The notes: generated by a model not told the origin, from the sequence alone. DNA of 64,000 bases from Nitrosopumilaceae archaeon (GCA_965203465.1 CBDBCR010000001.1:736001-800000), one strand, 5' to 3'; positions 1,095-21,509 are shown, counted from the first letter of the stretch. Program-made: numbers and translations.

Positions 1095-2912
1095 TCACGG
1101 CAGGTTGTCTAGCAGAACGTGGCGGTCCAGCCACATGTTCCGGTGCTCGCACGAGGTCTCCGACGTCATTAGGCACGCGTAGCACGAGGCCCCGCTGTAG
1201 CCGCCGCTGCGGAATTCGGCGTCCCCGCAGAGCGGGTCCCCCGAGCACGAAGAGGCCTTTTCGAGCGCCGCGCGCAGTATCTTTTCCATGTGCGGTGCAA
1301 GGCCGATCAGCCCGCCCAGCGTGCCCTCGTTCCCCGGCTGGGTCGCGTACAGGAGCACGCCGCCCCTGCACCTGCCCCCGTCTCGCTCGAAATACACGCG
1401 CTCCCTTATGGAAGCGGGCGAATACCCCGCCTCCTCGCCTATGGCCCTTATCAGCAGGTGGGAAACGGTGTGCCACCACACGAACCCCGGATCCAGCTCG
1501 TCCCTAGAGCTGTCCGCGTCGCGGAACACGAACCCCGAATACTGCCCGGCGCCGGCCGCGCCGCCCGTCCACGCCCCGGCATGCGCGCCTTTTGCGCAAC
1601 CCGACCACCCGCAGTCCTTGTCCAGGCGCACGAATACGCCCTCCCCGAAAAATTCCACGCCCGGAAACCAGAGGCCGGATCCTTGTCGGCTGTGGCCTAT
1701 CCGGACCAGCTTGGGGGGCGCCGACCCGACGCTTTCCGGCATGTCCCTGCGGAACCCCGTCTGGACGGTGACCGTCCTGAGCGTCTGGACGGGGGTGATC
1801 CTGAACGCCGTGCCTTTTTTGGTGCGCACGATTCCGATCTCGCGCGGCTCGATCTCGAAAATGATCTTGGCCTTGGGCCTTTCGGCCTCCTGGGGAGGGG
1901 CACCGTGCACGGACGCCTTTACGAGCTCGTGGAATTCGTCCATTATGAGGTCGTGGTACGGGCGGGGCCGGATTTTCCCGTGCTCTTCGACGGCCTGGCG
2001 TATCTCGCTCCAGTCCGACTCCCGGAACTCGTCGAGCACGTCCTTGCGTATTTTTCCGGCGGAGTGGAGTTTTTCCAGCACTTTCATCATTTTCCCCTTG
2101 GATCTGGCCGGCTGGAACATCAGGGCCGTCTGAATGTCGCTGTTTTGCAGGTGCAGGTTCAGGCTGGTGTTGGTAGATCGTATGGACAGCAGGGTCCGGG
2201 TCTCGGGCAGCCTGAGGTTGGAGGCGCGCCTGGTGATCACCTTTGCCTTTCTTTTACACGCCTCGCTGGAGCGCTCGGATCCCCCGTATTCCCTCTGCGG
2301 ATGCCTTCCGCGGCAGGGCCATTCGGAATAGTATATCCTGCCGAACTGCTGGGTCGTGCCGCACCGCGGGCATTCGAGCACCACGTCGCTCATGGTGCTC
2401 CCGCGCCGGTGCCATCTGACCGCGTCCCCCGAAAGCCCCGGGTGGAGCGATCCGGTCTTGCCCGCGCAGGCTGCCCCGCGGTGGACCATCCCGAACCAGT
2501 TGATCTCGTCCAAATGGCCGTCCCCGCACGCCATCACGAACCCGACTGCCGCCCTGCCGCCTCCGGTCTCCGCGTCCTTGCACACGGGGCACAGATCTTC
2601 CCTGTAGATCAGCGATCCTCCGCCGTGGTTCTGGTTGGGGCAGATCTTCCAGACTGGAAACGGCGCGGTGCGGTATACGTCCCCCTCGTGCCCGAGCTCG
2701 GGATTGGTCGGGAGCCTGTATATCTTGGCGCCGTCTAGCAGGCCCTCGGACATCCTCTTGTCGTCTATGCGGTAGTCCTCCGGCCGGAAGCCGGACGGAT
2801 GAAAGAGCCCGATCCCCGCGTCCGGTATAAGCCGGGGGCCGTCCCTGCCCTCCAGAATCGCGCCCGGGCCGTACACGAGTATGAACTGCGAGGGCCTGAT
2901 CTTCTGGGTCAT
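1095..2912 (-). CDS. drmB: DISARM DrmB-like DUF1998 protein (copy 1)
   Basis: Starts MTQKIRPSQFILVYGPGA at ATG 2912, in an ATGA overlap with the drmA stop. Contains CGDGHLD, HTVSHLLIR, SIRERVY, GTLGGL and the C-terminal four-Cys motif CSGDPLC..SCYAC..SETSCEHRN..LDR. Confidence 0.9.
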   Translation of the reverse strand: MTQKIRPSQFILVYGPGAILEGRDGPRLIPDAGIGLFHPSGFRPEDYRIDDKRMSEGLLDGAKIYRLPTNPELGHEGDVYRTAPFPVWKICPNQNHGGGSLIYREDLCPVCKDAETGGGRAAVGFVMACGDGHLDEINWFGMVHRGAACAGKTGSLHPGLSGDAVRWHRRGSTMSDVVLECPRCGTTQQFGRIYYSEWPCRGRHPQREYGGSERSSEACKRKAKVITRRASNLRLPETRTLLSIRSTNTSLNLHLQNSDIQTALMFQPARSKGKMMKVLEKLHSAGKIRKDVLDEFRESDWSEIRQAVEEHGKIRPRPYHDLIMDEFHELVKASVHGAPPQEAERPKAKIIFEIEPREIGIVRTKKGTAFRITPVQTLRTVTVQTGFRRDMPESVGSAPPKLVRIGHSRQGSGLWFPGVEFFGEGVFVRLDKDCGWSGCAKGAHAGAWTGGAAGAGQYSGFVFRDADSSRDELDPGFVWWHTVSHLLIRAIGEEAGYSPASIRERVYFERDGGRCRGGVLLYATQPGNEGTLGGLIGLAPHMEKILRAALEKASSCSGDPLCGDAEFRSGGYSGASCYACLMTSETSCEHRNMWLDRHVLLDNLP

Positions 2913-5900
2913 GTCTGGAAGCCGGTCTCCTCTTCTATGTTCCTGAGGGACTGCGGGGCGTTGCGGTACACGACTGCGGCGTTCGAATGCTCGTGCCTCG
3001 GATCCCCCAGCACCACCGCCTTTTTCGGGGCGCCGTATTCGACGTACGCCAGGTCCGGATCCCGCTCTGCGCTGCTCCTCCACCGCTCTATCGCCCTCCG
3101 CGCGCCCTTTTCCGTCTCGCCCTCCGCGGGCCTTCTGGAGCCGGGCTGCTTTTGCGATCTGGCCTCCAGAATGCGCGGAACCGCGCCGACTTCCGGGGCG
3201 CCGAAGTCCCGGCCCATTTTGGAGGCGTTTTTGCCCGCCCATTCCTGGGATGCCTCGCGGGCGTTCCTCAGTATGCCGACCATGACCGGCCCCTCCGCCC
3301 GCTCCCTGACCCGCTTGGCGAACGGGAACACGGTGGGCGGCTCGACGAACCTGTGGAGCTGGCGGTGGTGCCTGACGAAAAACTCGTAATGGTTCAGATC
3401 GCGCGGCTTTGAGGCCTGGTGCAGCGTGACCACTATCGCGCCGCTTTTCCTGCCCACCCTGCCGGTGGCCTGTATGTAGGCAGACGAGGTCTTGGGCTGG
3501 CCGTTGACTATCATGGCCCCGAGCCTCTGCACGTCCACGCCGGTGCCGAACATGGAGGTGGTGAACAGCGCGTCCAGTGCGTCTTCGGATCCGGGGTGTT
3601 GCTTGCCCAGCAGATCCAGTATCGACGGCAGGTTGGTAGAAGGCGTCCTTCCGGACAGCTCTTGGCACCTCTCTTCCCTGACGACCCGGGCCTCCGATCC
3701 GGAACGCTCTGCCAAGTGGCGCATCCACTCGGGGATCTCTTGCCTGTACAGCGCCCGCGCGCCCGCCAGCTCCCTTACCGTGTTAAAGTACCCTATCACG
3801 GTCCAGAACCGGTCCGCGCCCAGTTCGCCGGCGCTCTGGGTCAGCCTGGACCATATCCTGACGACCGGCGTGAGCGCGCCGCGGCCCGGGGCGCAGATTC
3901 CGACGTGCAGACGCCCGGCTTCCGCGTCTTGGAGCGGGTGGGCCGGCGTTTCCCGGACGAAGAACCTGTCGTCGGCGTCCAGCCCCTTGGGCGGGAACAC
4001 CGCGATGCCCCTGGCGAACAGGGCCTTTACGTGGTCGCCCGAGCGCTTGGCGGTGGCCGTCGACGCGACGTACTTTACCCGGCCGTCGGCGGAGCACAGG
4101 TGATCCACGGCAGACTCGTATATGCCCACCATGCTGCCCAGCGGGCCGTCGAGCAGGTGGAGTTCGTCCTGGATCATGAGATCGGGCGGCCGTATCCTCC
4201 GCGCCAGCTTTGCGTGGTTCTTTTCCCTGCCGCCCGCCGGGCTCGGATGCGCGACCGACCTCCTGTGGTAGCCCTTGACGTTGTGGTGGTAGTCGACGTT
4301 GCCGAACAGCGAGCCGCTCTGGGGCTCGAATGGGATCCGGGCCAGTTTGTCCACGGTCGAGACGATCATGGTGGGCAGGATCCTGTACAGCTGCTCGTCT
4401 ACGGTGAACGCCGGGATGGGTATGCGGTCCGAAAGGCTGCGCTCTATGGCGAACGCTCCGTTGACGTCCATCATGCAGTTGCCGTCCATGCTCCGGACGC
4501 CGCGCACGGCCTCTTCGGTGTCTGCGCAGTCGGGCACCCTGCCGTGGACCCTGCCCAGGGGCGCCCCTCCGGCCCATTTCGCGACCAGCCGGCAGCCGGG
4601 GTTCGGGCAGAATATCTCAAAGTCGTATTCCCTTCTCTTCCCGTCCTTGGCATAGTCCCGTATAAAGTACCCCGGCCGAGACGCGCTGGCCGGCGCGAGC
4701 CTTGCGGGGGTGCCGTTTTCCCCCAGGCGCTTCCGTATCCTGGACCAGAGCCCGTCCAGATCGCTGCCCCGGATCCTCGAATCGGAGTGGAGCCCGACGG
4801 ACAGGGTGAACACGCCTTCGACCGCGTTCTTGGTGACGCGGGACTTTGTGATTTTCACGTATGGCGCCTCGATCCCGGACAGGCCCGCCGCGTTCAGTCC
4901 CCGGGCCGCGGTGCGCACCACGTAGTGTATCTCGGCGTCTTCGAGCCCCATCTTGGGCGTGGCCAGCACGGATCCGCACGCGGGGCATTCGAGTATCTGG
5001 GCCGGCTCGCCGTCGTTTTCGTGCTCGCCGGCGTGCTTGAGGATCTCCAGGGCTCCGGGCACCGTGCTCCCCCCGAACCACGTGTCGTCCAGCTTGTTGG
5101 GCGTCACGGTGCTGCCCACCCAGAGCCCCACCGAAAAGGGCGCGGTGCCCCACAAAAACCCCTCGTCGCCCCGCCGGCCCCGGGGCCTCCAGCCGACGCG
5201 GCCCCCGCTCAGCCCGTCCACCCTGAGGCGCTCCATGGCCGTAAACAGCGCCGCGGTCCTCCTGAACTGCTGTATGGTCAACAGCCGCAGGGTGTACCTG
5301 CTTATCACCGAGACGCCCTCCCCCGAGCGCGCCCACGTGTGGCTTTTTGCCGCCCGGAGCCGCCTGTATGCAGAGACCATGGCCACCAGGAACAGGTAAG
5401 CCTCGGTCTTGCCTCCCCCGGTGGGAACCCAGAGCAGATCGCACGTGCCCCTGTCTTCGGACTTGCGGTTCAGGATGGATTCGGCGCTCATCAGTATGAA
5501 GCCTAGCTGGAACGGCCTGAATTCCATGCCCTTCCGCCCGGCCCATTCGGCCTGCTCGTCGATGGCGCGGCTTGCAAAACAGAACGCCAGCCTGGCGTCG
5601 TCGTCCTCGCACACCGTCTCTATCCCGAGCTTTATGCGCCTGTGAGCTTCTTGCGCCGCGCGTATGATCTCCGACTTTACGTCGCGCCGGACTCGGCAGC
5701 CGCGCAGCTCGTCTATCCACCGCCCGTACTCGGAGTCGAACGGCTCCAGGTGGCGCCTGAGGGCGGCCTTGTCGTACTCTTGCGCGTATTCGCCCGGTTT
5801 CAGCAGGGGCCGGTTTTTCCCGCGCCATTCAAAGTCCGGCGACATGACGTTGTGCATGGGCACGAATTCTGTCCTCGCGTCGCAGGCGGCAAACTTGGCG

Positions 5901-6742
5901 CGCTGTTTTGCGGGCAGGATCTCGCGGTCGGCCCACGCGAATCCTGGCTGCGATGCGCATTCGGGGGAGCCCGGATGGTCCGTCTCGGGGTCGACGCCCT
6001 TCCAAACGGCGGACGTCATGTGGCCCCTGGCCAGGGATTCCCTGTTTCTGTACAGCACCTCGTCCTCGCTTTCGTCCTTTGAAGCCGCTTCGGCGCCCCG
6101 GCCCGGGACGATCTTCGTGCCCGCGCCGCACACGATCCTGATCTGGGGCTGGAACACGTGGTGGTCGGATCCCGCCTTTTTCCCGGGGGGGACTTTGATC
6201 CTGTTGACCACGTGCATGCTCACGGAGCGCGCCCCGGGGCCCCGGCCCACGCGCACGTGCACCGAAATCTCGCCGTCCCCGCCCGCCGCGTTTCCGTCAG
6301 AATCAAACCACCTCGTCTCTTTGCCCTTTCCGCCCACGCGGAAAATGGCGCACTTTGGAGACCTCGTCCATTGCCCGGCGTCCGGATCCTGCCTGTACCT
6401 GGCCCAAGTAACGCACGCGTCGATCTTGGGGACCCCCGACGACGAGATGGAGAACGTAATGCCCATCGTAGACGGGATCTTTTTTGGATCGAGGGCCGGC
6501 GACAGCATGGAAGACGGCGAGATCCCGGGTTCGGCGTCCTCGTCCCCCTCCCTCTTTTCCGCGGTGCCGGCGAGATCCGAGTCTGATCCGGGCTCTTCGT
6601 CGCGGCGCTCCGCCTCGGCGCCTACGGGCGCCAGTATGCCCGTGATGTATTCGACTATGGGCTTGTCTGCCAGGGTTTCCCGCGGCCCGCCGCGCGGGCC
6701 CAGGAGGTTCTTGACCAGATCGCAGACCAAAACTTCCCTCAA
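2909..6742 (-). CDS. drmA: DISARM DrmA-like SF2 helicase (copy 1)
   Basis: Walker A PTGGGKTEAY, SRYTLRLLTIQQF, DELH, STAT, GVDV and QATGRVGR; 1277 aa; translationally coupled to the DUF1998 gene. Confidence 0.9.
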   Translation of the reverse strand: MREVLVCDLVKNLLGPRGGPRETLADKPIVEYITGILAPVGAEAERRDEEPGSDSDLAGTAEKREGDEDAEPGISPSSMLSPALDPKKIPSTMGITFSISSSGVPKIDACVTWARYRQDPDAGQWTRSPKCAIFRVGGKGKETRWFDSDGNAAGGDGEISVHVRVGRGPGARSVSMHVVNRIKVPPGKKAGSDHHVFQPQIRIVCGAGTKIVPGRGAEAASKDESEDEVLYRNRESLARGHMTSAVWKGVDPETDHPGSPECASQPGFAWADREILPAKQRAKFAACDARTEFVPMHNVMSPDFEWRGKNRPLLKPGEYAQEYDKAALRRHLEPFDSEYGRWIDELRGCRVRRDVKSEIIRAAQEAHRRIKLGIETVCEDDDARLAFCFASRAIDEQAEWAGRKGMEFRPFQLGFILMSAESILNRKSEDRGTCDLLWVPTGGGKTEAYLFLVAMVSAYRRLRAAKSHTWARSGEGVSVISRYTLRLLTIQQFRRTAALFTAMERLRVDGLSGGRVGWRPRGRRGDEGFLWGTAPFSVGLWVGSTVTPNKLDDTWFGGSTVPGALEILKHAGEHENDGEPAQILECPACGSVLATPKMGLEDAEIHYVVRTAARGLNAAGLSGIEAPYVKITKSRVTKNAVEGVFTLSVGLHSDSRIRGSDLDGLWSRIRKRLGENGTPARLAPASASRPGYFIRDYAKDGKRREYDFEIFCPNPGCRLVAKWAGGAPLGRVHGRVPDCADTEEAVRGVRSMDGNCMMDVNGAFAIERSLSDRIPIPAFTVDEQLYRILPTMIVSTVDKLARIPFEPQSGSLFGNVDYHHNVKGYHRRSVAHPSPAGGREKNHAKLARRIRPPDLMIQDELHLLDGPLGSMVGIYESAVDHLCSADGRVKYVASTATAKRSGDHVKALFARGIAVFPPKGLDADDRFFVRETPAHPLQDAEAGRLHVGICAPGRGALTPVVRIWSRLTQSAGELGADRFWTVIGYFNTVRELAGARALYRQEIPEWMRHLAERSGSEARVVREERCQELSGRTPSTNLPSILDLLGKQHPGSEDALDALFTTSMFGTGVDVQRLGAMIVNGQPKTSSAYIQATGRVGRKSGAIVVTLHQASKPRDLNHYEFFVRHHRQLHRFVEPPTVFPFAKRVRERAEGPVMVGILRNAREASQEWAGKNASKMGRDFGAPEVGAVPRILEARSQKQPGSRRPAEGETEKGARRAIERWRSSAERDPDLAYVEYGAPKKAVVLGDPRHEHSNAAVVYRNAPQSLRNIEEETGFQT

Positions 6743-7237: not shown

Positions 7238-7244
7238 TTTATTT
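7238..7244 (+). promoter_or_regulatory. Putative TATA box of the five-gene operon
   Basis: TTTATTT about 21 nt upstream of in-frame GTG 7266. Confidence 0.45.
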
Positions 7245-7265: not shown

Positions 7266-9158
7266 GTGGGTAGGCCGTATTCGAAAGAACTGGACATGGT
7301 GCCCCTGACCTACGCGTGGGCAAACCGCGCCCCGATCGGCGATCTTGGGGCGCTGGTAAACAGGTGCGCCAATGCTCCGCTGTACGCCGTAGGCTCCGGC
7401 GGATCTTTTACCGCCGCGACGTTCGCTTCCGCACTGCACCAGCGGGGGGGCAAGATCTCCAGGTGCATGACGCCACTGGAGTTTGTCTGGCACCCGAGCC
7501 TTGACGGCGACGCCTGCGTGGCCATAGTCACGGCCGGCGGCAACAACAAGGACATACTGGCGTCCTTCGACAAGGCGGCCGCGTCTGCGCCGCTGACGGG
7601 CGTAGTCTCTACAAGCGCGGAGAGCAGGCTGGTCAGAAGGGCGGGCGGCGTCAAGAACGTGCTTGTCCACGCCGCGTGCCCTCCCTCCGGCAGGGACGGG
7701 TTTCTTGCCACGAACTCGCTGATCGCCACGATGCTCTGGCTGTCCCGCGCGTACATAGAGGGGCTCTCGCTCCCGTACGAGATTCCAAAATTTGCGAGGC
7801 TTGCTTCCTGCGGGCCCGGCGCGTTCGAAAAGGCGCGCGGCAAAAAAACGCTAGTCGTGCTGCACGATGACTGGGGCAAGACGGCCGCGGTCGACGCAGA
7901 ATCAAAGATGGTGGAAGCCGGCCTGGCCAACGTCCAGATTTCGGACTACCGCAACTTTGCCCACGGCAGGCACAACTGGCTGGACAAGGCTTCAAGCGAG
8001 ACCTGCGTCGTGGCGATGATCACGCCGCAGTGCCTCGGCCTGGCCGACAGGACGATAGGGTTCGTTCCGGCCGACGTGCCGGTCGTTCGCCTGGCGACGG
8101 ACTTGGACGGTCCTGCGGCGGCGATAGACCTGACCCTCCAGGTGTTCCGCATGGTGGAGTTTTTCGGCGCCGTCCGGGGGATCGATCCTGGGCGGCCCGG
8201 CGTCAAGGACTTTGGACGCCGGATCTACGGCATCGGCGTGCCGAACTTGTGCGAGGACGACCTGGCCGACTTTGAAAGGCTGGCGCTGCGCCGAAAGTTC
8301 GGCAGCGCCGGATCCAAAGCCAAGTCGCGCCAAAAGTCGCTTGGCCGTTTCGTCTCCAAGATGCTCCGGCAGGAGTTTGGAGCGGTCGTATTCGACTACG
8401 ACGGGACGCTCTGCGACGACGGCCGGCGGTTTGAAGGGCCCTCCCCCGAGATCGGATCCATGCTGGCAGGACTGGTCAGGCGCGGGGTGTACGTGGGGGT
8501 GGCGACCGGCCGGGGGGAATCGGTCCGCACGCAACTAGCAAGGCTCCTCCCCGGCAAATACCACGCAGGCGTGCTAATCGGATACCACAACGGCTCCCAG
8601 ATGGGCGGCCTTGCGGACCGCAACGTGCCAGACCCGCACCTGCCTCCAGACGAAGCGCTGCATTCGGCCTTTGAGGCGCTCCAGGCCCGCGGGTTTGAAA
8701 AAAACGGCGCCTCGGCTGGGCCTGCGCAGATATCTCTCAGATTGCCCAACCCGGACGCGCGGCAAGTGCAGCGCCTCGTGGAAGAGTCGGGCGTGGCAGG
8801 TGTCAGGGCGGTCGAATCTGGGCATTCGGTGGACCTGCTTGCTCCGGGGGTATCCAAACTCTCCCTGCTCTGCCACATCAAGGAGCGGTTGCCGAAGGGG
8901 CGCAAGATCCTATGTGTCGGAGACAGGGGCCGGTGGCCCGGCAACGACCACGAACTCCTGGGGACGGAGTACTCTCTCAGCGTCGACGAGGCGTCCGAAG
9001 ACCCATCGAGGTGCTGGAACCTGCTCCCTGCCCACAAGCGCGGCGCGGCAGGAACTTTGCATTATATGGGATGGTTTGGTGTGCGCGACGGCTTTGTCAA
9101 GCTCGAAAAAAATCTCGCAGATATGCGCGGCTCGAATGCCGCTGGAAGGAGACGATGA
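7266..9158 (+). CDS. Tandem SIS (GlmS isomerase-like) domains fused to a HAD-IIB phosphatase/phosphomutase
   Basis: SIS motifs: LYAVGSGGS, TAGGNNKD, GFLATNS, DAESKMVEAG..NFAHG. HAD motifs: VFDYDGTL, VATGR, VSK, CVGDRGRWPGND. Start placed at GTG 7266 (MGRPYSKEL) from TATA spacing; the ORF track starts at 7068. Confidence 0.8.
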   Translation: MGRPYSKELDMVPLTYAWANRAPIGDLGALVNRCANAPLYAVGSGGSFTAATFASALHQRGGKISRCMTPLEFVWHPSLDGDACVAIVTAGGNNKDILASFDKAAASAPLTGVVSTSAESRLVRRAGGVKNVLVHAACPPSGRDGFLATNSLIATMLWLSRAYIEGLSLPYEIPKFARLASCGPGAFEKARGKKTLVVLHDDWGKTAAVDAESKMVEAGLANVQISDYRNFAHGRHNWLDKASSETCVVAMITPQCLGLADRTIGFVPADVPVVRLATDLDGPAAAIDLTLQVFRMVEFFGAVRGIDPGRPGVKDFGRRIYGIGVPNLCEDDLADFERLALRRKFGSAGSKAKSRQKSLGRFVSKMLRQEFGAVVFDYDGTLCDDGRRFEGPSPEIGSMLAGLVRRGVYVGVATGRGESVRTQLARLLPGKYHAGVLIGYHNGSQMGGLADRNVPDPHLPPDEALHSAFEALQARGFEKNGASAGPAQISLRLPNPDARQVQRLVEESGVAGVRAVESGHSVDLLAPGVSKLSLLCHIKERLPKGRKILCVGDRGRWPGNDHELLGTEYSLSVDEASEDPSRCWNLLPAHKRGAAGTLHYMGWFGVRDGFVKLEKNLADMRGSNAAGRRR

Positions 9159-10237
9159 TCGACATACGTGAGACCATCTTGGCCCACGTGCTGGGATGGG
9201 AAGAAGACATAGGAGACGAGTACTACGATCTACAAGCGCTGGGAAACTCCGGCTACGACGATTACATGCAGTTCAGGCCCGGGATGAGGTTCGTGGCCAG
9301 CCTGGCAATGTGGCTAAAGCAGTTTCCGCCCGAGAAACGCACGGCCGCATACGAGTTTGTCAAAAAGCACGTCTTGTGTATCACGCGGGCACAAATGGAG
9401 CAGCTCGTGTCCGTAGCGTATCCGGACTATGTAATACCCATCCTCGCCAAGCAGATTGCGGGCGACGAGTCCAACAGCCTGCGCCGATGGGACGTAACCA
9501 AGACGCTCCGCTCTCGAGAGTTCGACATGCTGCACAAACGATGCCTGTTCATGGGCATGAGCGACGGATCCCACATCGACGAATTCAGGCGGAGCGGCGA
9601 CAAGATAGACCACGAGCAGGTGACAAGAACGCATGAAATAAACAGGGCCAGGGCAGACACGTTGCGCAGAAAACTGGAGAAGAGAACGAATTCGTCTGGA
9701 CAAAAAACATATTTCCAAAACGTCTTTCTGCTGGACGATTTTTCCGCCACGGGTACAAGCTACATAACCGAGGACGGGCAGTCTGGCAAGATCGCAGCTT
9801 TCCACAAAGCCATAACGTCTCCAGAAGACCCGCTGCACGGCTTGGTCGACCTTAAAGATTTGAAAGTTCACGTGATCCTGTACGTCGCCACGGAGCGGGC
9901 CGTTGGAACCATACGCAGCAATGGCGAAAAATTGTTTGGCGCCGTCCGGTTTTCGGTTACTGCCATACACACCATACCCGACTCTGTCAAGTTCGACGAA
10001 TCCGCAAATCCCGAATTTGCAGAACTGGTGCGTAATGAGTGTTTCGGGTACGAGAACATACTAGACGAGCACATGACCGCCGAAAACTCGCCTCAGCCGT
10101 GGCTCGGCTTTGGAAGTTGCGGCCTTCCGCTCGTGTTGTACCACAACACACCCAACAACTCTCTGCCCATCCTGTATAGGAACGACGAAAAGACCAAGTT
10201 TAAGGGGCTGTTTCCAAGGGTCAGGAGGCACCAGTGA
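9155..10237 (+). CDS. Phosphoribosyltransferase-fold protein (PRTase-CE-like)
   Basis: PRPP-binding loop VFLLDDFSATGTS and C-terminal LGFGSCGLPLVLYHNTPNNSLPIL..GLFPR. ATGA overlap with the upstream gene and GGAG upstream of the start. Confidence 0.75.
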   Translation: MIDIRETILAHVLGWEEDIGDEYYDLQALGNSGYDDYMQFRPGMRFVASLAMWLKQFPPEKRTAAYEFVKKHVLCITRAQMEQLVSVAYPDYVIPILAKQIAGDESNSLRRWDVTKTLRSREFDMLHKRCLFMGMSDGSHIDEFRRSGDKIDHEQVTRTHEINRARADTLRRKLEKRTNSSGQKTYFQNVFLLDDFSATGTSYITEDGQSGKIAAFHKAITSPEDPLHGLVDLKDLKVHVILYVATERAVGTIRSNGEKLFGAVRFSVTAIHTIPDSVKFDESANPEFAELVRNECFGYENILDEHMTAENSPQPWLGFGSCGLPLVLYHNTPNNSLPILYRNDEKTKFKGLFPRVRRHQ

Positions 10238-12153
10238 TGGCCCCCCGGAACCTCTTCCGCGTGCGCACAGCAGAATATTTGGACGATTACGCGTTTTTGA
10301 AATTGTTTGGCGCCGAAGCATTGGATATATTCAACGCCGATAAAGTTTGGGCACAGATGCAAATAATTAGAAGCTCGCGCGGAGGAGGCAAAACATCGTT
10401 GTTGCGGATTTTTTCCCCGCGTTCTTTAAACCAGATAAAAAACCAAGCGACGTCCCTAAAACCGCTTGTAGACAAACTGGTGGAACTCGGCGTGCTTTCG
10501 GACACACACGAGATCAACATGCTGGGAGTCTCACTCTCGCTGTTTGGAAACTATTCCCTCTTGGAGCATCTGGGCTTTGAGCGGCCACGGCAACAACGTC
10601 TGTTCTTCGCGCTGTTGGCAAGCAAGATCGTCATATCTGCCCTCCGGAGCGTGTGCGAGTTGAAGAAGGCCAAGTTTCCGGACGATCTAATCCGCATACG
10701 CATAGACCGTCCGCCCGATCCGAACATACGCGAATGCGTCCCAGTTCCGTGTGACGGACAACGGCTGTACGAATGGGCGGCGGAAATAGAAAACCGCGTG
10801 TATGCCATCATAGAACAACAGTCGGATTCGGACAAGGATCTGGGCGGGTACGAGACGCTTTCCCTCATACACCTGATCCAGTCTTCCAACCTGTCTTATG
10901 ACGGCAAACGCGTAGCTGAAAAGACGTTGCTGATGTTGGACGACGCACATTGTCTTACTCCTACACAAAGGAAACATCTTGCGCGCGCTTTAACCAACCT
11001 GCGGGTGCCGTTGATATGGGTAGCCGAGAGGCTCGAAGCTTTGAATCCGGAAGACATGCTCTCGCCCGACGGAACCGACGGGAGAGAATGGGGGCCGTCC
11101 TTGATAGTAGAGCAGTTTTGGCGACATAAACGCCGTCGTTCAAAGTTCGTTTCCTTCCTGAAGGCAATATCCAACAAACGCGCAAGTTCGGGAGACTCGG
11201 ACGTGGATTTTTCTGGCATGCTGACTGACGCACTCACACAACATGAGCGTTTCGAAGAAGCGATAGAACAGGAATCCAAACGCATAACTCGAGCGTTCGG
11301 CACAAACCCGCAGTACAAAGAGTGGTTTTCCAACTGCCAAAATTGTAGCGGGAGTCAGTCAGAGAGGGCCATGCAGTGGAGGCTGTTGGAGATAAACATA
11401 GAAAGGCTAAAACACCACAAACAGCAGCTGCTTTTCCCCAACGATCCCTTAGCTGTCGGTCTGCAGACCACGTCTCCGTCTACTAGGCACGTGGCAAATT
11501 TTTACATACGCAAAAAATACAACATTCCGCACTATTATGGTTTCGACAGCCTTGCACGCTTGTCCTCCTCCAACGTGCAGCAGTTTCTTTATTTGGCGGG
11601 TGGCCTTTTTGACCAGATCACGAACGCCCGCATAGCCGGCAGGCCTGTCGAACTATCTCCAAAAAAGCAGGACGAAATACTCACACAGGCGGCGGCCCGG
11701 CGCTGGGACGACATAATACGAATCATAGACGATCAAGCTCTAGAAAACTTTGTAGACAACATGGCCGACTTTTGCACCAAAGAGACGGATCTTCCCAACG
11801 CTCCGTACGACAGCGTTACCGGAATAGCAATATCGACAGAGAATCTCAGGCTCCTGCAAAACCTCCCCCCAAACGGCCATTCTCAACACAGACGGCTGGC
11901 CAGCATTCTGTCCACCTGCTTTGCCCACAACATACTGGAGCCCAGACCGTACGCCAAGCAGGGATCTCCGGGAACCACTCATCTGGTAATGTATCTCAAT
12001 CGACTCTTTTGCATACGCTACAAACTACCGCTTGCGTACGGAGGATGGAGGGAAAAGTCGCTTTCCGATCTGCTGGTTTTCTCACAGACCCGATCCAGCA
12101 GGATCCCGCTCCTAGATCACGTTCAAAGCGAACTGGGGGCGAGCTCCGCGTGA
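10234..12153 (+). CDS. ORC/CDC6-like P-loop ATPase
   Basis: Walker A variant IIRSSRGGGKTSLL, Walker B LLMLDDAH, and a helical/winged-helix-like C-terminus ending YLNRLFCIRYKLPLAYGGW. GTGA overlap with the PRTase gene. Confidence 0.75.
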   Translation: MMAPRNLFRVRTAEYLDDYAFLKLFGAEALDIFNADKVWAQMQIIRSSRGGGKTSLLRIFSPRSLNQIKNQATSLKPLVDKLVELGVLSDTHEINMLGVSLSLFGNYSLLEHLGFERPRQQRLFFALLASKIVISALRSVCELKKAKFPDDLIRIRIDRPPDPNIRECVPVPCDGQRLYEWAAEIENRVYAIIEQQSDSDKDLGGYETLSLIHLIQSSNLSYDGKRVAEKTLLMLDDAHCLTPTQRKHLARALTNLRVPLIWVAERLEALNPEDMLSPDGTDGREWGPSLIVEQFWRHKRRRSKFVSFLKAISNKRASSGDSDVDFSGMLTDALTQHERFEEAIEQESKRITRAFGTNPQYKEWFSNCQNCSGSQSERAMQWRLLEINIERLKHHKQQLLFPNDPLAVGLQTTSPSTRHVANFYIRKKYNIPHYYGFDSLARLSSSNVQQFLYLAGGLFDQITNARIAGRPVELSPKKQDEILTQAAARRWDDIIRIIDDQALENFVDNMADFCTKETDLPNAPYDSVTGIAISTENLRLLQNLPPNGHSQHRRLASILSTCFAHNILEPRPYAKQGSPGTTHLVMYLNRLFCIRYKLPLAYGGWREKSLSDLLVFSQTRSSRIPLLDHVQSELGASSA

Positions 12154-13238
12154 CGGACTACGTTCGGCGTTATTTCGCGCCCAGCGGCCCTGATTTTGAG
12201 GGGTTTTGGAAGGAATACTTGAAGACAGAGCGCCGGATCATGTTCGTGACTGGGCTGGGATTTGATCCGAGATCATTTGACTGCCTCAAAAAAATCATAG
12301 CGTGCAACACCAAATCCACGATCGATTACAGGATCGTCGAATACGACTATTTTATCCAGAACGGCAAGATGAGGGACATGTATGAAAATAACCGGAACGA
12401 ACTGGAAGAAATGGGGTTGCCACAGGCGTCCAAACAACCTATACGCATGCAGGGTGACGAGAACATGACATCCACCGACGCCATCAGGTCAGTTACAGGC
12501 GAAGATCTCTGCACGCATTCTGACATCGTCGTCGACGTCACCTCGATGCCGGTGGGGGCTTATTTCCCGATGATTAAAAGCATCTTGTCCATGATCAAAC
12601 GGTCCGCAGACCCCAAAGTCAGAAAAACCAACCTGCACATAACCGTATCTGAAAACCCCCGCATGGACGCGTCAATACAGGAAACCACCAAAAACGAGAA
12701 ATCCGCGCACATGCACAGGTTTAGCCAGAGTCTTGAAAAAGAGACGATGCGCGGCGTGCCAAAGGTATGGATTCCGGTGCTTGGCGCCAACCAAAAAGAC
12801 CAGTTTGGCAAAATAAAATCCCAGATCACCCCCGCCGAAACCATCCCTGTGCTTCCAATGCCGTCGTCTGATCCGTATGAATCCAGAGACATACTCTTGG
12901 AATACAGCGCGCTTTTCGACGATCTCCAGATCGAGCAAAGAAACGTGGCCTATTCGGACGAACAAAACCCGTCGGAGACGTGCGCAAAAATAATGGCGAT
13001 CGCCAGAGACTACGATCGCCTGTGCGCCACAATGAGAAGATGCGTCGTAGTGATCTCCCCGCTCGCAAACAAGCTGCGTTGCATAGGGTGCCTGATGGCA
13101 GCATGCGACCTGCTTGACGAGGGCATAGATCTAGCAGTCGCATACGTGCCCAACCAATCATACAGCATCAAAGACACTTTTACGAAAAGCCCCAGCACAC
13201 TTTGCACGATATGGCTTGCCGGTGAGTGCTATGAGTGA
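12150..13238 (+). CDS. Hypothetical alpha/beta protein, possibly tandem CARF-like Rossmann domains
   Basis: GTGA overlap with the ATPase stop; 362 aa; motifs FVTGLGFDPR, IVVDVTSMP, WIPVLG and VVISPLANK. The fold call is inference. Confidence 0.6.
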   Translation: MTDYVRRYFAPSGPDFEGFWKEYLKTERRIMFVTGLGFDPRSFDCLKKIIACNTKSTIDYRIVEYDYFIQNGKMRDMYENNRNELEEMGLPQASKQPIRMQGDENMTSTDAIRSVTGEDLCTHSDIVVDVTSMPVGAYFPMIKSILSMIKRSADPKVRKTNLHITVSENPRMDASIQETTKNEKSAHMHRFSQSLEKETMRGVPKVWIPVLGANQKDQFGKIKSQITPAETIPVLPMPSSDPYESRDILLEYSALFDDLQIEQRNVAYSDEQNPSETCAKIMAIARDYDRLCATMRRCVVVISPLANKLRCIGCLMAACDLLDEGIDLAVAYVPNQSYSIKDTFTKSPSTLCTIWLAGECYE

Positions 13239-14235
13239 CGCCGCTAGGCCCGCATGCGTCGGGACGGGTCTGGTGGTACTCGACGCGATTTATGACGCAA
13301 GAGGCGCAGGCCCCAAGTTCTTGGCGGGAGGCTCGTGTGCCAACGTGCTCACGATACTGTCGTACCTGGGATGGGATTCGTACCCGGTGGCGCGACTCGG
13401 AGGCGATCTAGAAGGGAGGCGCGTGATCGCGGACATGAAATCGTGGGGTGTGCACATGGAGTTTGTGCAGACCGAGACTGAATTGGCCACCCCTCGGATC
13501 ATAGAGCAGGTGGGGAGGGGAGGGCGCAAGACGCACAGGTTCCGTTTCACGTGCGACCACGGCCGCCGGCTCCCCCGGCGGAGGCCGTACACCCTCCGGG
13601 CGGCCGGCGAGGCGCTGGCCCGGCTGCCGGCGGCCGGCGTGTTTTACTTTGACCGGGCGGGTCCGGGCGTGCTAAAGATGGCCCTGCGCATGAAGGCCGG
13701 CGGGGCCGTCGTGTTCTTTGAGCCCCACAAGCCCTCAGGCGGCGCGATCTTTGAAAGGTGCCTGCGGGCAGCCGACATAGTCAAGCACTGCGGCGACGCC
13801 ACGGGCAACCCGCAGGTTCCGTTGGAGATACAGACGCTGGGAGGGGACGGCCTGCGGTACAGGACGCGCGGGACGGACTGGGTGAGCATGCATGCCTTTC
13901 CCGTCCGTGACTTGGTAGACACGGCCGGATCGGGCGACTGGCTGTCGGCGGGCCTGATCCACCGCATGTTCGGCGGCGGCTCGTCCAGAATTCCCGCCCG
14001 GCGCGGCATCGAGTCCGCACTCAGATTTGGGGAAGCGTTGGCCGCAGCAAACTGCAGCTTTGTAGGCGGTCGCGGGATGATGTATTCCGTAACGCGGGAT
14101 CGGGCGCTCGGACTGGCAGAAAAGATAGCGTCTAGCCGGATGGCGGTACCCGTCGGCACCAGCACGCTGCGGGCAGGCCGGGCACCCGGATGCAGGGTAT
14201 GCCTATGCGGGACGGCCGACGGGTACCGCCGCTAG
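13231..14235 (+). CDS. PfkB/ribokinase-family carbohydrate kinase
   Basis: GTGLVVLD, AGGSCANV, LGGDLEG, TLGGDG and the anion-hole motif DTAGSGD; overlaps the preceding stop by 8 nt. Confidence 0.85.
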   Translation: MSDAARPACVGTGLVVLDAIYDARGAGPKFLAGGSCANVLTILSYLGWDSYPVARLGGDLEGRRVIADMKSWGVHMEFVQTETELATPRIIEQVGRGGRKTHRFRFTCDHGRRLPRRRPYTLRAAGEALARLPAAGVFYFDRAGPGVLKMALRMKAGGAVVFFEPHKPSGGAIFERCLRAADIVKHCGDATGNPQVPLEIQTLGGDGLRYRTRGTDWVSMHAFPVRDLVDTAGSGDWLSAGLIHRMFGGGSSRIPARRGIESALRFGEALAAANCSFVGGRGMMYSVTRDRALGLAEKIASSRMAVPVGTSTLRAGRAPGCRVCLCGTADGYRR

Positions 14236-14806
14236 GCCCATTCTGGCGTACAGTGCGAATTCCCACCGCGCCGCATGCCGTAAGCACAGGATTTTCGCAA
14301 ATCTGCCCTATCCGGCTGGCAGGCGTTCACGCTGTTTGGGCCTGCTTACGCATACTAACCACACGTGCCAGAATGCTGCATTCAGGCGGCCGGCGCGATG
14401 TGAGCCCGCCCTCGCCGGATCCACCCATCCGGCCCAAAAGCCCGATCCGGGCCGAAAAGCGGCAGCCGCGGAACCTATATCCGAAAACGGCCCGCCCCGG
14501 GCGGCGCCCGGGAAGGAGCGCGCCCGGGCCCCGGTGCCGCATAGGCGACGGCGCAACCGTGGGACTTGGCGTCTATTGCCAACGACCTGACCGCGTGCGA
14601 CGCGCAGGCGCGGCAGAGGGACGCCGGCGCCAAACGGCCAACGAGAGGGGCACGGAGAGGCTCTCGGCCACGGTCTCGTCCGCCCACACGCGCAAGATCA
14701 GGGCGTAGTCGTACCGGACGCTATCTGCAAGCCGCGATCCGGCAGCCTCGGCCTAGCGCGCCTTGTGCGGCCAAACGTTAACATGTTTGGCGCGGCGGGT
14801 GCCGGC

Positions 14807-17800
14807 ATGGATCCCGGAAGCCCGGATGCGCGCCCGGGCCTGTTCCGCCCGGACGAGCCGGCCCCGAGCGTCCGGCAGGACAGGTTCGGCCACGGGGACT
14901 TTGTGGAGTTGCTAAAGTACGTGATCCGCAACGGCGAGGCGCCCCTCAACATAGCCCTCTACGGAAAGTGGGGGGTCGGAAAGTCGAGCATCCTGAAGTT
15001 TTTCCGCACGGAGGTGTCCAGGGACAAGAACCTGAACGACAAGTTCGTCTTCGTGCCCATAGACGTGTGGAAGCTTTCGCCCCGCATACTAAAGCAGGAG
15101 TTTCTGGACGCCCTGAACCAAGAGCTGGGGTCGCTGACCGACGAGGAAATGAACGAGAGGCTCTGGCACCACAAGGAAGAGACCTCTGACCGGAGCGCGT
15201 CGTTGAGAAAAAGATACGCTCTTGCGACTGCGGGCGGCGTTGGGTTATTTGCGGCTTTGGCGGCTGCGAGCCAATATTTTCCCACATATTTTGAAAATCA
15301 TCCGTGGATGTCCTCCTCGTTTCTGATAAGCGTGGTTCCGTTTTTTGTGGCCATGTTGCAGGAGCTTGGAAGACTTTCCAAAAGCGTGGCCAAGTCTAGA
15401 AAGACAATCATCCCGAGGATCGAGTCATACGCGCAGTTCCGAAAACTGTTCGAGGACATAGTCAACGCCAAGAGCGGCAAAAAGCCGATAATCGCCATAG
15501 ACAACCTGGACAGGTGCGACAGCGAATCGGTGGTGGCGATACTGGGCATGATCAAGACGTTCCTGGACGATCCCAAATGCTTCTTTGTCGTGGCCTGCGA
15601 CCAAGACGCGATAATCAAGCACCTGCAGGTAAAGAAGGGGCTGTTCGATCAGAGGTACGCCAAAGAGTTCCTGGGCAAGTTTTTCCAGGTTTCCCTGTAC
15701 ATACCGGACCAGATAAAGGGGCAGCTCTACGAGTACGCCAAATCCCAACTCGGTGCGTTCGAGCCCGATATAGAGTTTGATCCGAACGTGGCCGACATTT
15801 TCGCGAATGCCGGGACCCGGAACCCCAGGAAAATCCGGCAGTTTGTGTACAATTTCGCCATAGCGTACAGGATGGCATCCATCAAGGAAAACGCGGGCGC
15901 CATCGCCAAAGGCACGGTCACCGGGAACGCGCCGTTCCTTGCCAAGATCACGGTGCTCAGGGAAGACTGGCCGGATTTCTTTCAAAAGTTGGAGAAAAAG
16001 CCTGCTCTTTTGAAAAGAATCCAAGAATTCATAGACGGCAGCTCCGAGCACGATTACGACGAAATCTTGAAGCACAACGAAGGCTTGGAGAATTTTCTCA
16101 GATCTACCCGCACGGTAAAATCCGCACAGATTCTGGCCTTTGTGAATCTGAACCAGGAATCGTTCGAGGCCTCGCTGTCGAAACTGGACAGGCTGATTGT
16201 CGCGGTAAACCAGGACGATGCAGAATCCGTGAAGGAAATCGTGCTGGAAGACCCGGAAAAACAGCACGAATATGTCCTGAAATTGTGCAGCTTGGTACAA
16301 GAGTACGTAGAAAATGGAAGAAACTTGGTTGCAGGCAACGCGCTCGGCGTGCTGGTCGACATGCATGGCGTTGTAAACGAAGAATCCAAGGAAAAGATCA
16401 TAGAACTGCTTGACCGGTTCATGGCCGGCAGCGACATGCTCAAAAATCTGCGGACGTTTGATGTCGACGCCCTGTTTTCAATCACGCCCTCTCTGGATTC
16501 AGACACCAAGGAGCGAATCTATCTGGAATACTCGGAAAGCTTGTCCGTGCCGGACGGCGAGTTTTTGATCCTCAAGAAACTCATAGGCAAGGCCCCGTTG
16601 GTCAGCTCTCTTGTCTGCGACAACATAGACCGCAAACTGGGATCGTGGGCGCAAAAAAACGAGAATCTGTTTTATGACATGACGGCGCTGCTGATTGCAA
16701 GTGACGTGCACGCAAAATTCATCAAAGACGACATACTGAGGGGAATAATAGGCGCCGCCAAATCCGGAAAAGACAAATGGACAGAGAGGTACTTGGAGCT
16801 GAAGTATCTTGCCAGGGAAAACGTCAAACGGGCGTTTGTCGAAAGGATGCTTTCGTCAGTCGTGGCAAAGAAAGGAGAAAGTATGCCTGCCGATCACAGA
16901 AAAAAATACGAAACGCTCGGAAAAATGTCCCCGGATGACTTTACGGCAGACGCCGCCAAACACGCGTACGATGTATTGAAAGGTCCGGCTAGGCACTATG
17001 CGGACGCGGGCGACAAGGCACTGGCGGCAGGGATCATCCTGAAGATATACGCAAAACTGGATCCTGCCGACAGGGAAGAGTTTGCGGCCGACGTCTTTGC
17101 CCCGCTGCTAGGACAGAGCGGCCCGCAGAACCTCGCCCCCCTAGCAGAGGTCGTCCGCAAGGAAGGCATCCGGATTCTCGAGCTCGAGGCCGCCGCGGAC
17201 GCTGTCTTTTCCCTGCTGCGAAACGCGCCCTCGCGCGAGTCGGTCGATCTCATGTACGCAGGCGTGCCGGAAGGCAAGTGGGCGGACGTGGAAGAAAAAA
17301 TAGTCCAGATACACGATGCGGACTTCGGCAAGGTCGAGGTTCTTGCGTCCGCGTTCGAGCTGTCTGCCCGCGCGCCCGAAGAGCTGAGGGCGAAGGCTCT
17401 TGGCAGGATGGCACAATCCTGCCAAAGCTTTAGCTGGGTGCAGCAATCGTCAATCCACCGAAAGCTGTCCAAAGCGCTGGGATCTGAAAGCGGTCTTATG
17501 GGCGCGTTCGCCGACGGTCTGTCGTTCGGGCTCGTATCAAACGACCGCTCGGAGATCGACGCGTATCTGGAACTCGCGGGGGAGTGTCTTGGAAAAGTTG
17601 CGGAAACAAAGCGCAGGGAGATATTTTCCGCGCTCTTTGACAAGCTGCAGCAGTATCCCCCGCCAAAGAAAGACCGGAGCATGTTGAAATTCCTGATGTC
17701 TAAAAACAAGAGCATGGATCAGGGCGAGAAGGGGCAATTGGGAGGCGTCGTGATCAAAATCCTACGGACAAACAACAGTTCACTGATAGGGGAAATTCTG

Positions 17801-17935
17801 GACGAGTTTAGCAACCTGGACTTGGGGGACAACAAAGAGCCCGCGTACGAGCTTGTCCGCAAACTGTGCGAGTCTCACGACCAAGACGTCAAGAGCAAGG
17901 CTCTGGAGATCGTGGAAGGGCACGGCCTTCACTAG
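14807..17935 (+). CDS. KAP-family P-loop NTPase with 2-TM insert and long helical C-terminus
   Basis: DRFGH, IALYGKWGVGKSS, two hydrophobic segments, IDNLDRC, FLGKFFQ and NPRKIRQF. Start uncertain (14765, 14783 or 14807). Confidence 0.85.
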   Translation: MDPGSPDARPGLFRPDEPAPSVRQDRFGHGDFVELLKYVIRNGEAPLNIALYGKWGVGKSSILKFFRTEVSRDKNLNDKFVFVPIDVWKLSPRILKQEFLDALNQELGSLTDEEMNERLWHHKEETSDRSASLRKRYALATAGGVGLFAALAAASQYFPTYFENHPWMSSSFLISVVPFFVAMLQELGRLSKSVAKSRKTIIPRIESYAQFRKLFEDIVNAKSGKKPIIAIDNLDRCDSESVVAILGMIKTFLDDPKCFFVVACDQDAIIKHLQVKKGLFDQRYAKEFLGKFFQVSLYIPDQIKGQLYEYAKSQLGAFEPDIEFDPNVADIFANAGTRNPRKIRQFVYNFAIAYRMASIKENAGAIAKGTVTGNAPFLAKITVLREDWPDFFQKLEKKPALLKRIQEFIDGSSEHDYDEILKHNEGLENFLRSTRTVKSAQILAFVNLNQESFEASLSKLDRLIVAVNQDDAESVKEIVLEDPEKQHEYVLKLCSLVQEYVENGRNLVAGNALGVLVDMHGVVNEESKEKIIELLDRFMAGSDMLKNLRTFDVDALFSITPSLDSDTKERIYLEYSESLSVPDGEFLILKKLIGKAPLVSSLVCDNIDRKLGSWAQKNENLFYDMTALLIASDVHAKFIKDDILRGIIGAAKSGKDKWTERYLELKYLARENVKRAFVERMLSSVVAKKGESMPADHRKKYETLGKMSPDDFTADAAKHAYDVLKGPARHYADAGDKALAAGIILKIYAKLDPADREEFAADVFAPLLGQSGPQNLAPLAEVVRKEGIRILELEAAADAVFSLLRNAPSRESVDLMYAGVPEGKWADVEEKIVQIHDADFGKVEVLASAFELSARAPEELRAKALGRMAQSCQSFSWVQQSSIHRKLSKALGSESGLMGAFADGLSFGLVSNDRSEIDAYLELAGECLGKVAETKRREIFSALFDKLQQYPPPKKDRSMLKFLMSKNKSMDQGEKGQLGGVVIKILRTNNSSLIGEILDEFSNLDLGDNKEPAYELVRKLCESHDQDVKSKALEIVEGHGLH

Positions 17936-18168: not shown

Positions 18169-18681
18169 ATGGAATACGGCGACTTTTCCGTGGTAAAGGA
18201 CACCTAGGTGGGCGAGGGCACGGTAATACGGGGCCACTGCAACATCTTCGGCTCCAAGATAGGCAGGGACTGCAAGATAGGCCCCATGGCCTACCTCGAG
18301 CCCGGATCCAGCATGGGCGACCGGAGCACGCTGCGCCCCGGGTGCCACATAGGCGACGGCGTCACGATAGGAAACGACGTGTTCGTGGGGCCCGGCGTCT
18401 ATACGACCAACGACCTGTACCCCGCGCCGCTACACGTGCCGCCGCTAAAGACCGACATATGCGACGGGGCCGTGATAGGGGCAGGCGCCATACTGCTGCC
18501 CGTCCGCATAGGGTGCAAGGCGTTCGTGGCCGCCGGCGCGGTGGTCACGCGCGACGTGCCAGATTACGCCGTCGTGGCCGGCTCGCCGGCAAAGGTAATC
18601 GGCAGCACAAAGGATACAGCCTTTGTCGAAAAGCAGAGGATGCGGGACGCCGGCAAGGATCCGAGGGGCCCTACGTCCTAG
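18169..18681 (+). pseudogene. Hexapeptide-repeat sugar N-acetyltransferase (WbpD/WxcM-like) interrupted by an in-frame TAG at codon 13
   Basis: Reads MEYGDFSVVKDT*VGEGTVI..IGNDVFVGPGVYTTND..VAAGAVVTRDVPDYAVVAGSPAKVI. TAG at 18205-18207; TATTATT 24 nt upstream of ATG 18169. Confidence 0.7.
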
Positions 18682-20326: not shown

Positions 20327-20457
20327 AAACGCGGCCTCTTTTTTGGATACCGTGTCCGGCGGGGCCCCGCCGGCGCTTTATAACTCTCCGTCGCGGCGCC
20401 TTTGTTCTTGCGCCCGCGGGGGGCTTTGGCCTCCCGGACGGACTCCCGTACTCCGCT

Positions 20458-21408: not shown

Positions 21409-21509
21409 TCGCCGGAGCCGGACTGCTGGTGATAAATACCGGCGCGTCCGGGGCCCCCTGCAAGGTCCGGCTCCGGCGCGAGCAAAGCGGTTCCTGCCGG
21501 GCGCGCGCA

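Follow-up and report, generated by a model that had tools for sequence, protein, structure and literature searches.

A conserved five-gene cassette with a PRTase-CE/ORC-CDC6-like ATPase/tandem CARF core in a defense island of a Nitrosopumilaceae archaeon

We have analyzed a stretch of 64,000 nucleotides from a Nitrosopumilaceae archaeon (GCA_965203465.1 CBDBCR010000001.1:736001-800000; hereafter the window, with positions counted from its first letter), and in particular a five-gene cassette at 7266-14235 that an original prediction, made from the sequence, had proposed as a new defense operon. The genome is archaeal (its small subunit (SSU) rRNA scores 1442 bits on the archaeal model), 2.26 Mb in size and about 65% GC. 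The cassette genes, here called S, P, O, C and K, all lie on the plus strand and are open without stops on translation (Table 1). Successive genes overlap by 4, 4, 4 and 8 nt, and the junctions are ATGA at 9155, GTGA at 10234, GTGA at 12150 and an 8-nt ATGAGTGA overlap at 13231-13238, which confirms the gene layout described earlier. For S, alignments with the best full-length homologues begin at residue 1 of both proteins (for example, P0054 1-625 aligned with 1-623), which favors a GTG start at 7266 over ATG at 7068. The TATA-like box noted before S is present as TTTATTT, the sole AT-rich motif of a GC-rich spacer. Because the genome carries archaeal SSU rRNA, this motif fits an archaeal TATA box; judged from the sequence only, its position would be right for one, and a leaderless or short-leader promoter is plausible.

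Table 1. Features of the five-gene cassette and its surroundings in the window.
Feature	Position	Strand	Basis	Remarks
DUF2321 protein, double zinc ribbon	418-930		2.3e-46	Edge of island
DISARM drmB	ORF 1095-3728	-	PADLOC 588 bits, match from residue 274	True start near 2909
DISARM drmA	2909-6742	-	PADLOC 1378 bits, full length	Upstream of cassette
TATA-like AT-rich box (TTTATTT)	about 7238-7244	+	Read directly	About 25 nt upstream of 7266
Gene S, double-SIS + HAD-IIB fusion	7266-9158	+	Profile, AF2/Foldseek, TIGR01484	
Gene P, PRTase-CE	9155-10237	+	PF24390	Predicted effector
Gene O, ORC-CDC6-like P-loop ATPase	10234-12153	+	PF24389	Predicted sensor/switch
Gene C, stand-alone tandem CARF	12150-13238	+	PADLOC CARF6, AF2 fold comparison	Predicted ligand sensor
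Gene K, PfkB-family kinase	13231-14235	+	PF00294	
KAP NTPase, 1056 aa, PifA/QatA-like	14765-17935		PF07693 2.7e-33	Downstream of cassette
OLD/GajA/AriA-like ABC-type ATPase	21821-23551		Family match	Downstream, beyond KAP NTPase

The domain calls originally made for the five products all stand when compared with Pfam, PADLOC, NCBIfam, profile searches, Foldseek and fold comparison. The motifs named with them, DYDGT, DDFSATG, GKT (as GGGKTS) and DTAGSGD, could all be located, and homologues show no or almost no variation at their key residues. None of the five proteins reached the cut-off of a curated NCBIfam enzyme model. The first protein, S, joins a double-SIS domain of the phosphosugar isomerase/deaminase type (residues about 20-316) to a HAD-IIB sugar-phosphate phosphatase (about 370-615). 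Its profile, built from 29 of the 150 listed SIS-HAD representatives, matched NagB-II in the PDB (8eol, 9.4e-6, over 20-316) as well as HAD proteins over 373-458. The AlphaFold2 (AF2) model, with a predicted local distance difference test (pLDDT) score of 90.3, again gave NagB-II as the top Foldseek match (8fdb, 2e-13, TMt 0.71-0.76), followed by GlmS isomerase domains, and the HAD part matches TIGR01484 HAD-IIB (3.4e-8). K214, E217 and H233 line up with the K..E..HG motif of NagB-II, and the GSGGS loop, E217, H233 and the DxDxT residues D377, D379 and T381 are invariant across the 29 sequences. From work on GlmS, we take E217 and H233 to have the catalytic Glu and His roles.

P is a phosphoribosyltransferase (PRTase) of the PRTase-CE family, where 'CE' stands for 'conflict effector'; the PUA-Cal-HAD preprint attributes the Calcineurin-CE/'CE' naming to Nicastro et al. 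2023 (10.64898/2026.01.15.699771). The match to PF24390 (1.4e-21, 77.9 bits against a cut-off of 27) aligns residues 52-355 with positions 3-253 of the 253 in the profile, and the PRTase_III-A models of PADLOC also match, down to 1e-13. Within the loop for phosphoribosyl pyrophosphate (PRPP), L192, D194, D195, F196 and G200 are invariant in 11 sequences. O matches the ORC-CDC6-like family PF24389 (6.7e-24, 85 bits against a cut-off of 27); its Walker A (G50/G52/K53/T54) and Walker B (D236/D237) residues are invariant among homologues, and the nearest ESM Atlas clusters are labeled 'ORC-CDC6 family AAA ATPase' (score 0.99). PRTase plus ORC/CDC6-like ATPase is indeed a recognized conflict-system pair, as the original prediction had stated. 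Against the PDB, the P profile gave 0 matches and the O profile just P-loop noise (E about 0.5), i.e., no solved relative of O by sequence. Another PRTase-CE gene (119 bits), some 54 kb before the start of the window (G000:C1:681769-685579; L025 5770-9580), belongs to a different trio of ParB_N protein, PRTase-CE and N6/N4 DNA methylase with a DDE transposase close by, and this trio is probably another conflict system.

C, previously called CARF-like, proves to be a true tandem CARF protein by fold and by PADLOC. It has no Pfam match and is matched by the CARF6 model PDLC01910 (4.7e-79). Its AF2 model (pLDDT 86.6, predicted template modeling score 0.90) aligns best in VIA-align with Can1 (6sce_A, Z 15.6, root-mean-square deviation 3.3, 233 aligned residues over model 29-339), and ranks 1-16 of the fold search are all CARF proteins, with Csm6, Cam1, Can2, Card1 and Csa3 at Z 9.7-13.1. 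The protein is made up of two CARF domains in one chain and carries no effector domain. An assignment as a tandem-USP or transporter C-terminal domain, which had come from low-TM Foldseek matches of the whole model, was discarded, as the wide VIA search gave CARF instead. S303 and K308 of the second domain are invariant and resemble the CARF [ST]..K motif. The CARF alignments used 27 of the 48 matches (A1) and 11 sequences (A2).

The predicted partner of C is the ATPase. Co-folding of O (residues 1-620) with C gave a median interface score (ipSAE) of 0.81 (runs 0.82, 0.80 and 0.81), against 0.00 in three of three controls. Of 80 solved complexes, 58 reach the mark set for this contact score, as do 2 of 110 mismatched pairs; this calibration holds only roughly here, as the prediction was built on custom alignments. 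The runs share at least 89% of their contacts with partner pLDDT of at least 82, and the predicted interface places an insert of the O ATPase domain (101-138, 183-196) against the first CARF domain and the linker of C (103-109, 144-151, 183-201). Recall of a known O-C complex is unlikely, because no solved relative of O was found by sequence, and the model supports binding of C by O.

K belongs to the PfkB family (PF00294, 5.4e-16). Its profile matches fructokinases (5.6e-12), ketohexokinases (about 1e-10 to 1e-9), ribokinase (2.5e-6) and adenosine kinase (5e-5) in the PDB, and the DTAGSGD residues D230, G233, G235 and D236 do not vary among homologues. No NCBIfam equivalog was reached at cut-off (best 34 bits against 330), and there is a weak match to fructoselysine 6-kinase (0.0025, 17 bits against a cut-off of 247). 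Beside the kinase motifs, C108 is near-invariant and aligned with a consensus CPxCG, where the window protein has H at the second Cys position, and a C-terminal CxxC (C321, C324) is conserved. These cysteines suggest a zinc site atypical of PfkB kinases.

The original prediction had proposed a neighborhood survey for conservation of the five genes, and such a survey finds the cassette complete at 10 of 12 genome loci and 35 of 36 metagenome loci with enough flanking sequence. C itself has just 48 relatives in a word-indexed set of 5.8 billion proteins. When C was used as anchor with one genome per species, 16 loci were obtained from Planctomycetota, Acidobacteriota, Chloroflexota, Pseudomonadota and a Desulfitobacterium; among the ten complete loci, nine are ordered S-P-O-C-K and one (L007) P-O-C-S-K. 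The SIS-HAD protein gave 894 representatives at E ≤ 1e-30 in a 50%-identity library, and the metagenome scan anchored on it gave at least 534 confirmed relatives, from which 80 loci were kept. All 80 read S-P-O-C-K as far as the contig extends. Where at least 5600 nt follow S, a single locus (L091) is without K, and the PRTase gene stands next to SIS-HAD in 76 of the 76 loci whose contig runs past SIS-HAD. The 4-nt gene overlaps are also found in cassettes of other phyla. The arrangement is therefore far beyond chance, with the same order across phyla.

Departures from the five-gene form were also found. At L018 and L020 the kinase is absent and a NADAR gene lies directly upstream of S (1.2e-27 at 4246-4881 and 9.1e-25 at 4351-4962, respectively), and at L008 two NADAR genes (14453-15046, 17270-17869) occur a few kb downstream of a complete cassette. 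L019 starts inside C, with no kinase beyond and a transposase and an integrase next. L015 looks degraded, as its positions 1514-5814 hold fragments of SIS-HAD (residues 381-609), ATPase (5-194) and CARF (116-362), i.e., a decaying or misassembled cassette. In four metagenome loci a dCTP-deaminase/dUTPase-like gene is placed between S and P (L030; L031 3648-4268; L033 3990-4649; L044 4751-5401). NADAR is described as having ribosyl N-glycosidase activity (PMC9503650). By their families, the NADAR and dUTPase-like variants would fit a lasting theme of ribosyl and nucleotide chemistry.

The association of K with S and the NADAR variants bear on one possible explanation of the cassette. The fructoselysine kinase/deglycase pathway likewise pairs a PfkB kinase with a double-SIS enzyme. 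With a similar logic to that of FrlD/FrlB on Amadori products, the PRTase might phosphoribosylate a key metabolite or a macromolecule (ATP, NAD, a protein, or a base in DNA or RNA), while SIS-HAD and kinase, or NADAR, would remove or detoxify the adduct with self-immunity or reset as the outcome. The weak resemblance of K to fructoselysine 6-kinase would agree with this, as would its ketose kinases as nearest solved relatives, the Glu/His of amino-sugar isomerases retained in the SIS domain, and a ribosyl N-glycosidase standing in kinase-less variants. However, the fructoselysine 6-kinase match is far under its cut-off, the PRTase sequence gave no sign of nucleic-acid or protein binding, and the scheme is drawn by analogy; we know of no substrate of a PRTase-CE protein. 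We regard such a writer and eraser pair as distinctly unlikely. The likeness to FrlD/FrlB and GlmS/NagB-II is one of a PfkB kinase paired with a double-SIS enzyme, with the SIS fold and the Glu/His motif in common. In contrast to these enzymes, no curated model was reached, the SIS part is fused to HAD, and the pair is found inside a conflict cassette.

The three inner genes are also found as a system of their own. PF24389 was above cut-off in 15 of 401 sampled Planctomycetota genomes, and the strongest matches lie outside the five-gene cassette, in trios ordered as first gene, ATPase and a third gene of about 320-340 residues, which matches the order of P-O-C. The first gene of these trios is a PRTase-CE in L112 (2.7e-50), an HD-CE in L114 and L115 (5.7e-23 and 3.1e-24) and a calcineurin-associated winged helix-turn-helix (wHTH) protein in L111, and the third genes are homologous to the tandem CARF (hhalign 96.2%, E 2.7e-9, 269 columns, A1 vs A8). 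No SIS-HAD or kinase was seen in the trio flanks, even though the same flank size shows both at cassette loci. The cassette ATPases form a divergent branch, as they score 71-85 bits on PF24389 compared with 240-340 bits for trio ATPases. Judged by these homologies, the constant part of such systems is ATPase plus CARF, the first slot holds a swappable effector, and S and K accompany one PRTase branch. The putative ATPase-CARF sensor would work without S and K, because trios with HD-CE or other effectors have neither. As S and K are tied to the PRTase and absent from HD-CE trios, they are therefore placed with the effector chemistry and not with the sensor.

This placement weakens the original proposal that the kinase and SIS-HAD build or erase the ligand of the sensor, because the two genes follow PRTase chemistry: trios with the same sensor lack both, and all SIS-HAD loci reaching past that gene carry the PRTase. 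What is left of the proposal is a rather unlikely alternative, in which kinase, SIS-HAD and PRTase would build, and NADAR or HAD erase, a (phospho)ribosyl or amino-sugar nucleotide that is the CARF ligand, i.e., the cassette's own second messenger. In that case, the ATPase-CARF complex or the resulting metabolic drain would act as the actual effector, and neither Cas10 nor a CD-NTase would be needed. C has no effector domain, and the 96.9%-complete genome gave no match to TIGR02577 (Cmr2) or TIGR02578 (Csm1), the two Cas10 models tried; no CRISPR link was seen at any cassette locus examined. As for CD-NTases, the genome holds just a SMODS-like match below threshold (24 bits against 26.5) in a 592-aa frame (G000:C1:631866-632285; L024). 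Additionally, a kinase, a GlmS/NagB-II-type isomerase, a phosphatase and a PRTase resemble a small-molecule pathway, all catalytic motifs are conserved, and the 2023 abstract of Nicastro and colleagues reportedly speaks of systems 'downstream of novel enzymes generating signaling nucleotides'. Points against a dedicated signal-making pathway are the ATPase-CARF trios that have HD-CE or other effectors and lack SIS-HAD and kinase, the position of the PRTase in the variable 'effector' slot of the trio, and loss of the kinase or its replacement by NADAR while the other four genes stay. A self-contained CARF pathway that makes and recycles a non-oligoadenylate messenger derived from sugar phosphates and read by CARF-ATPase also appears unlikely; if true, the self-made CARF ligand would represent a new class of second messenger in immunity, with sugar phosphates as its source.

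The division into an inner core and outer genes is visible in base composition as well. The greater AT content noted earlier for the middle genes is clear, with 51-54% GC in genes 2-4 against 64-67% in genes 1 and 5 (S 0.642, P 0.537, O 0.520, C 0.511 and K 0.666). The outer genes (S, K) exceed the inner genes (P, O, C) in GC by 0.131 in the window, whereas in 50 other cassettes this excess averages 0.016 and is 0.058 at most. S and K of the window are both closest to L026 and L027 (47/43% and 45/44% identity), clearly above the rest, and P, O and C have no such favored relative. Over 51 loci, which are not independent and for which the values are descriptive, correlations of similarity ranks are 0.60-0.80 within P-O-C, 0.56 for S-K and 0.15-0.45 across the groups. 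The exceptional GC step, together with nearest relatives shared by S and K and not by P, O and C, suggests that recombination replaced the P-O-C core of an older, resident cassette, in agreement with the modular build seen in the trios. The insertion of a low-GC trio into a native SIS-HAD/PfkB operon was considered and rejected, because the five genes move as one set in other phyla.

In the window, the cassette is surrounded by a defense island with DrmA/DrmB, the KAP NTPase and the OLD/GajA-like ATPase. The position between drmAB and a KAP NTPase given in the original prediction agrees with the PADLOC DrmA/DrmB and PF07693 matches. Two open reading frames (ORFs) between the KAP and OLD/GajA-like genes (18623-20221 and 20378-21463) have no family match. 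The KAP NTPase and OLD/GajA-like genes are low in GC (about 0.50-0.53) and resemble the cassette core in this. The combination of drmA/drmB with the cassette did not recur in the 16 genome loci, and the cassette is by this test not an extra DISARM module. When flank ORFs including those of the window were clustered, no window flank gene grouped with any of the 16 genome loci. Outside the cassette, no neighbor is conserved apart from one MerR-type regulator cluster in 3 loci.

Elsewhere the neighbors are mixed. For the 16 genome loci, 116 of the 119 flank ORFs listed were scanned, after three L010 ORFs duplicating L008 neighbors were dropped, and these flanks hold housekeeping genes plus BrxL, AbiEii and integrases. 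Those of the metagenome loci (149 of 197 ORFs, i.e., the first 150 when sorted by locus, without a 1,669-aa ORF of L070) are led by integrases (4), Eco57I methylases (3), M78 peptidases (3) and S24 peptidases (3), with PIN, RadC, type I restriction-modification subunits (including specificity) and AbiV among the further families. PADLOC matches in the flanks were mostly generic protein-kinase matches (PD-T4-6) and were not counted as defense genes. Among 401 genomes sampled from the phylum of the host, a single one has the CARF gene, and the cassette type occurs in 3 of 401 Planctomycetota genomes. This is the distribution of a rare mobile accessory module, and the five genes hold up as the single unit originally proposed, conserved, horizontally mobile and in the window located in a defense island.

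These neighborhoods also bear on whether the cassette could be a housekeeping or niche operon for sugar or nucleoside salvage, with a regulatory ATPase, and unrelated to the island in which it happens to lie. In favor of this, ordinary metabolic superfamilies account for three of the five proteins, and several bacterial loci have housekeeping neighbors. Location in sugar-catabolism loci with transporters had been named beforehand as a finding that would speak against defense; no sugar transporter or catabolic set recurs in the scanned flanks, and no transporter is among the leading flank families. The failure of all curated NCBIfam models to reach cut-off, the patchy occurrence, the conflict-effector families of the core, the homologous trios that swap in an HD phosphohydrolase, and the defense island of the window all make a salvage operon highly improbable.

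The reading that we prefer, and in which our confidence is about even, is that the cassette is one horizontally mobile conflict unit built on the PRTase-CE/ATPase/CARF core, in which the sensor pair controls a nucleotide-targeting PRTase that S and K serve. Such a cassette is probably an anti-virus defense system. ATPase and CARF would form a sensor or switch complex that answers an infection cue, with the CARF protein most likely binding a nucleotide-like ligand with a source other than Cas10. The activated complex would release the PRTase, which would attack the nucleotide or PRPP pool at the ribose-base linkage. SIS-HAD may isomerize a sugar phosphate and then dephosphorylate it, and together with the PfkB kinase it might handle the ribose-phosphate side of the PRTase reaction, either making the depletion irreversible or allowing a reset. 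One possible route would be from ribose-5-phosphate via a ketose phosphate to the free ketose; alternatively, Amadori-type phosphoribosylamine adducts might be removed.

Several points weigh against this scheme. Sequence does not tell in which direction the PRTase reaction would run. K resembles ketose kinases and not nucleoside kinases, which would be a misfit in a simple nucleoside-feeding scheme; this likeness would fit feeding no better than it fits reset or recycling. The presence of both a kinase and a phosphatase in the operon could just as well point to synthesis or a reset cycle. Furthermore, hhalign found no docking domain common to PRTase-CE and either HD-CE or the L111 first gene (probability ≤0.2%). 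The neighbors at genome loci are often housekeeping genes (sigma-70, argininosuccinate synthase, tRNA synthetase, P-type ATPases), and a scan of 2.9 million viral contigs yielded just 4 cassette loci. Other roles may also be assigned to these genes by Nicastro et al. 2023 or by the CARF classification of Makarova et al. 2020.

Among the closest known systems, a functional parallel is the experimentally tested anti-phage system PUA-Cal-HAD, where the HAD protein acts in sequence with Calcineurin-CE and dNTP pools collapse (10.64898/2026.01.15.699771). This HAD role parallels, and would be a precedent for, an S protein that augments a PRTase effector. In that account, PUA-Cal-HAD likewise combines a nucleotide-directed conflict effector with a ligand-binding sensor and a sequential HAD phosphatase. 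However, it has a calcineurin-like phosphoesterase where the cassette has a PRTase, PUA in place of ATPase plus CARF, and a type I cap HAD in place of a IIB HAD fused to SIS. It has no kinase. The analogy is one of function and not of whole-system homology. Compared with the effector-CE/ORC-CDC6-like/CARF-like trios (PF24390, PF24391 HD-CE, PF24389), P-O-C has the same families, the same order and a homologous third gene, while the cassette adds the SIS-HAD fusion upstream and the PfkB kinase downstream and has a divergent ATPase. C shares two CARF domains per chain with Can1 and the CARF effectors of type III CRISPR-Cas, as seen in the Can1 alignment, and differs from them in the lack of a fused effector domain, in having an ATPase as predicted partner and in a genome where Cmr2/Csm1 were not matched. 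P matches the PRTase_III-A models, and the partner listed most often for type III-A retrons is a PRTase-CE family (PMC13712802). In contrast to these retrons, the partners of the cassette PRTase are SIS-HAD, ATPase, CARF and kinase, and none of the five proteins has a reverse-transcriptase domain by Pfam, a search made for protein domains and not for non-coding msr/msd RNA.

Three of the five cassette proteins are not covered by any PADLOC v2 model. A literature search found no description or test of the five-gene cassette, with Nicastro 2023, Makarova 2020 and Burroughs 2015 outside its reach; the trio, and perhaps the form with five genes, may already have been described by Nicastro et al. 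2023. To call the operon 'new' was an overstatement, as the effector-ATPase-CARF core already has Pfam families and the cassette is widespread. Collectively, the core is of a computationally known kind, and the five-gene form is most likely a defense cassette.

If the cassette is defensive, it would be the first tested system of the class that combines an ORC-like ATPase, CARF and a 'conflict effector', and the first in which an isomerase-phosphatase and a kinase work alongside a phosphoribosyltransferase effector. It would reveal a role for a CARF sensor without a CRISPR cyclase as well as the chemistry of PRTase effectors, which matters beyond the cassette as type III-A retrons also use them. 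The strict gene order and the conserved catalytic residues offer clear mutants and measurable metabolites. Because the cassette is common and found in many phyla and one archaeon, knowledge of its mechanism would annotate many genomes.

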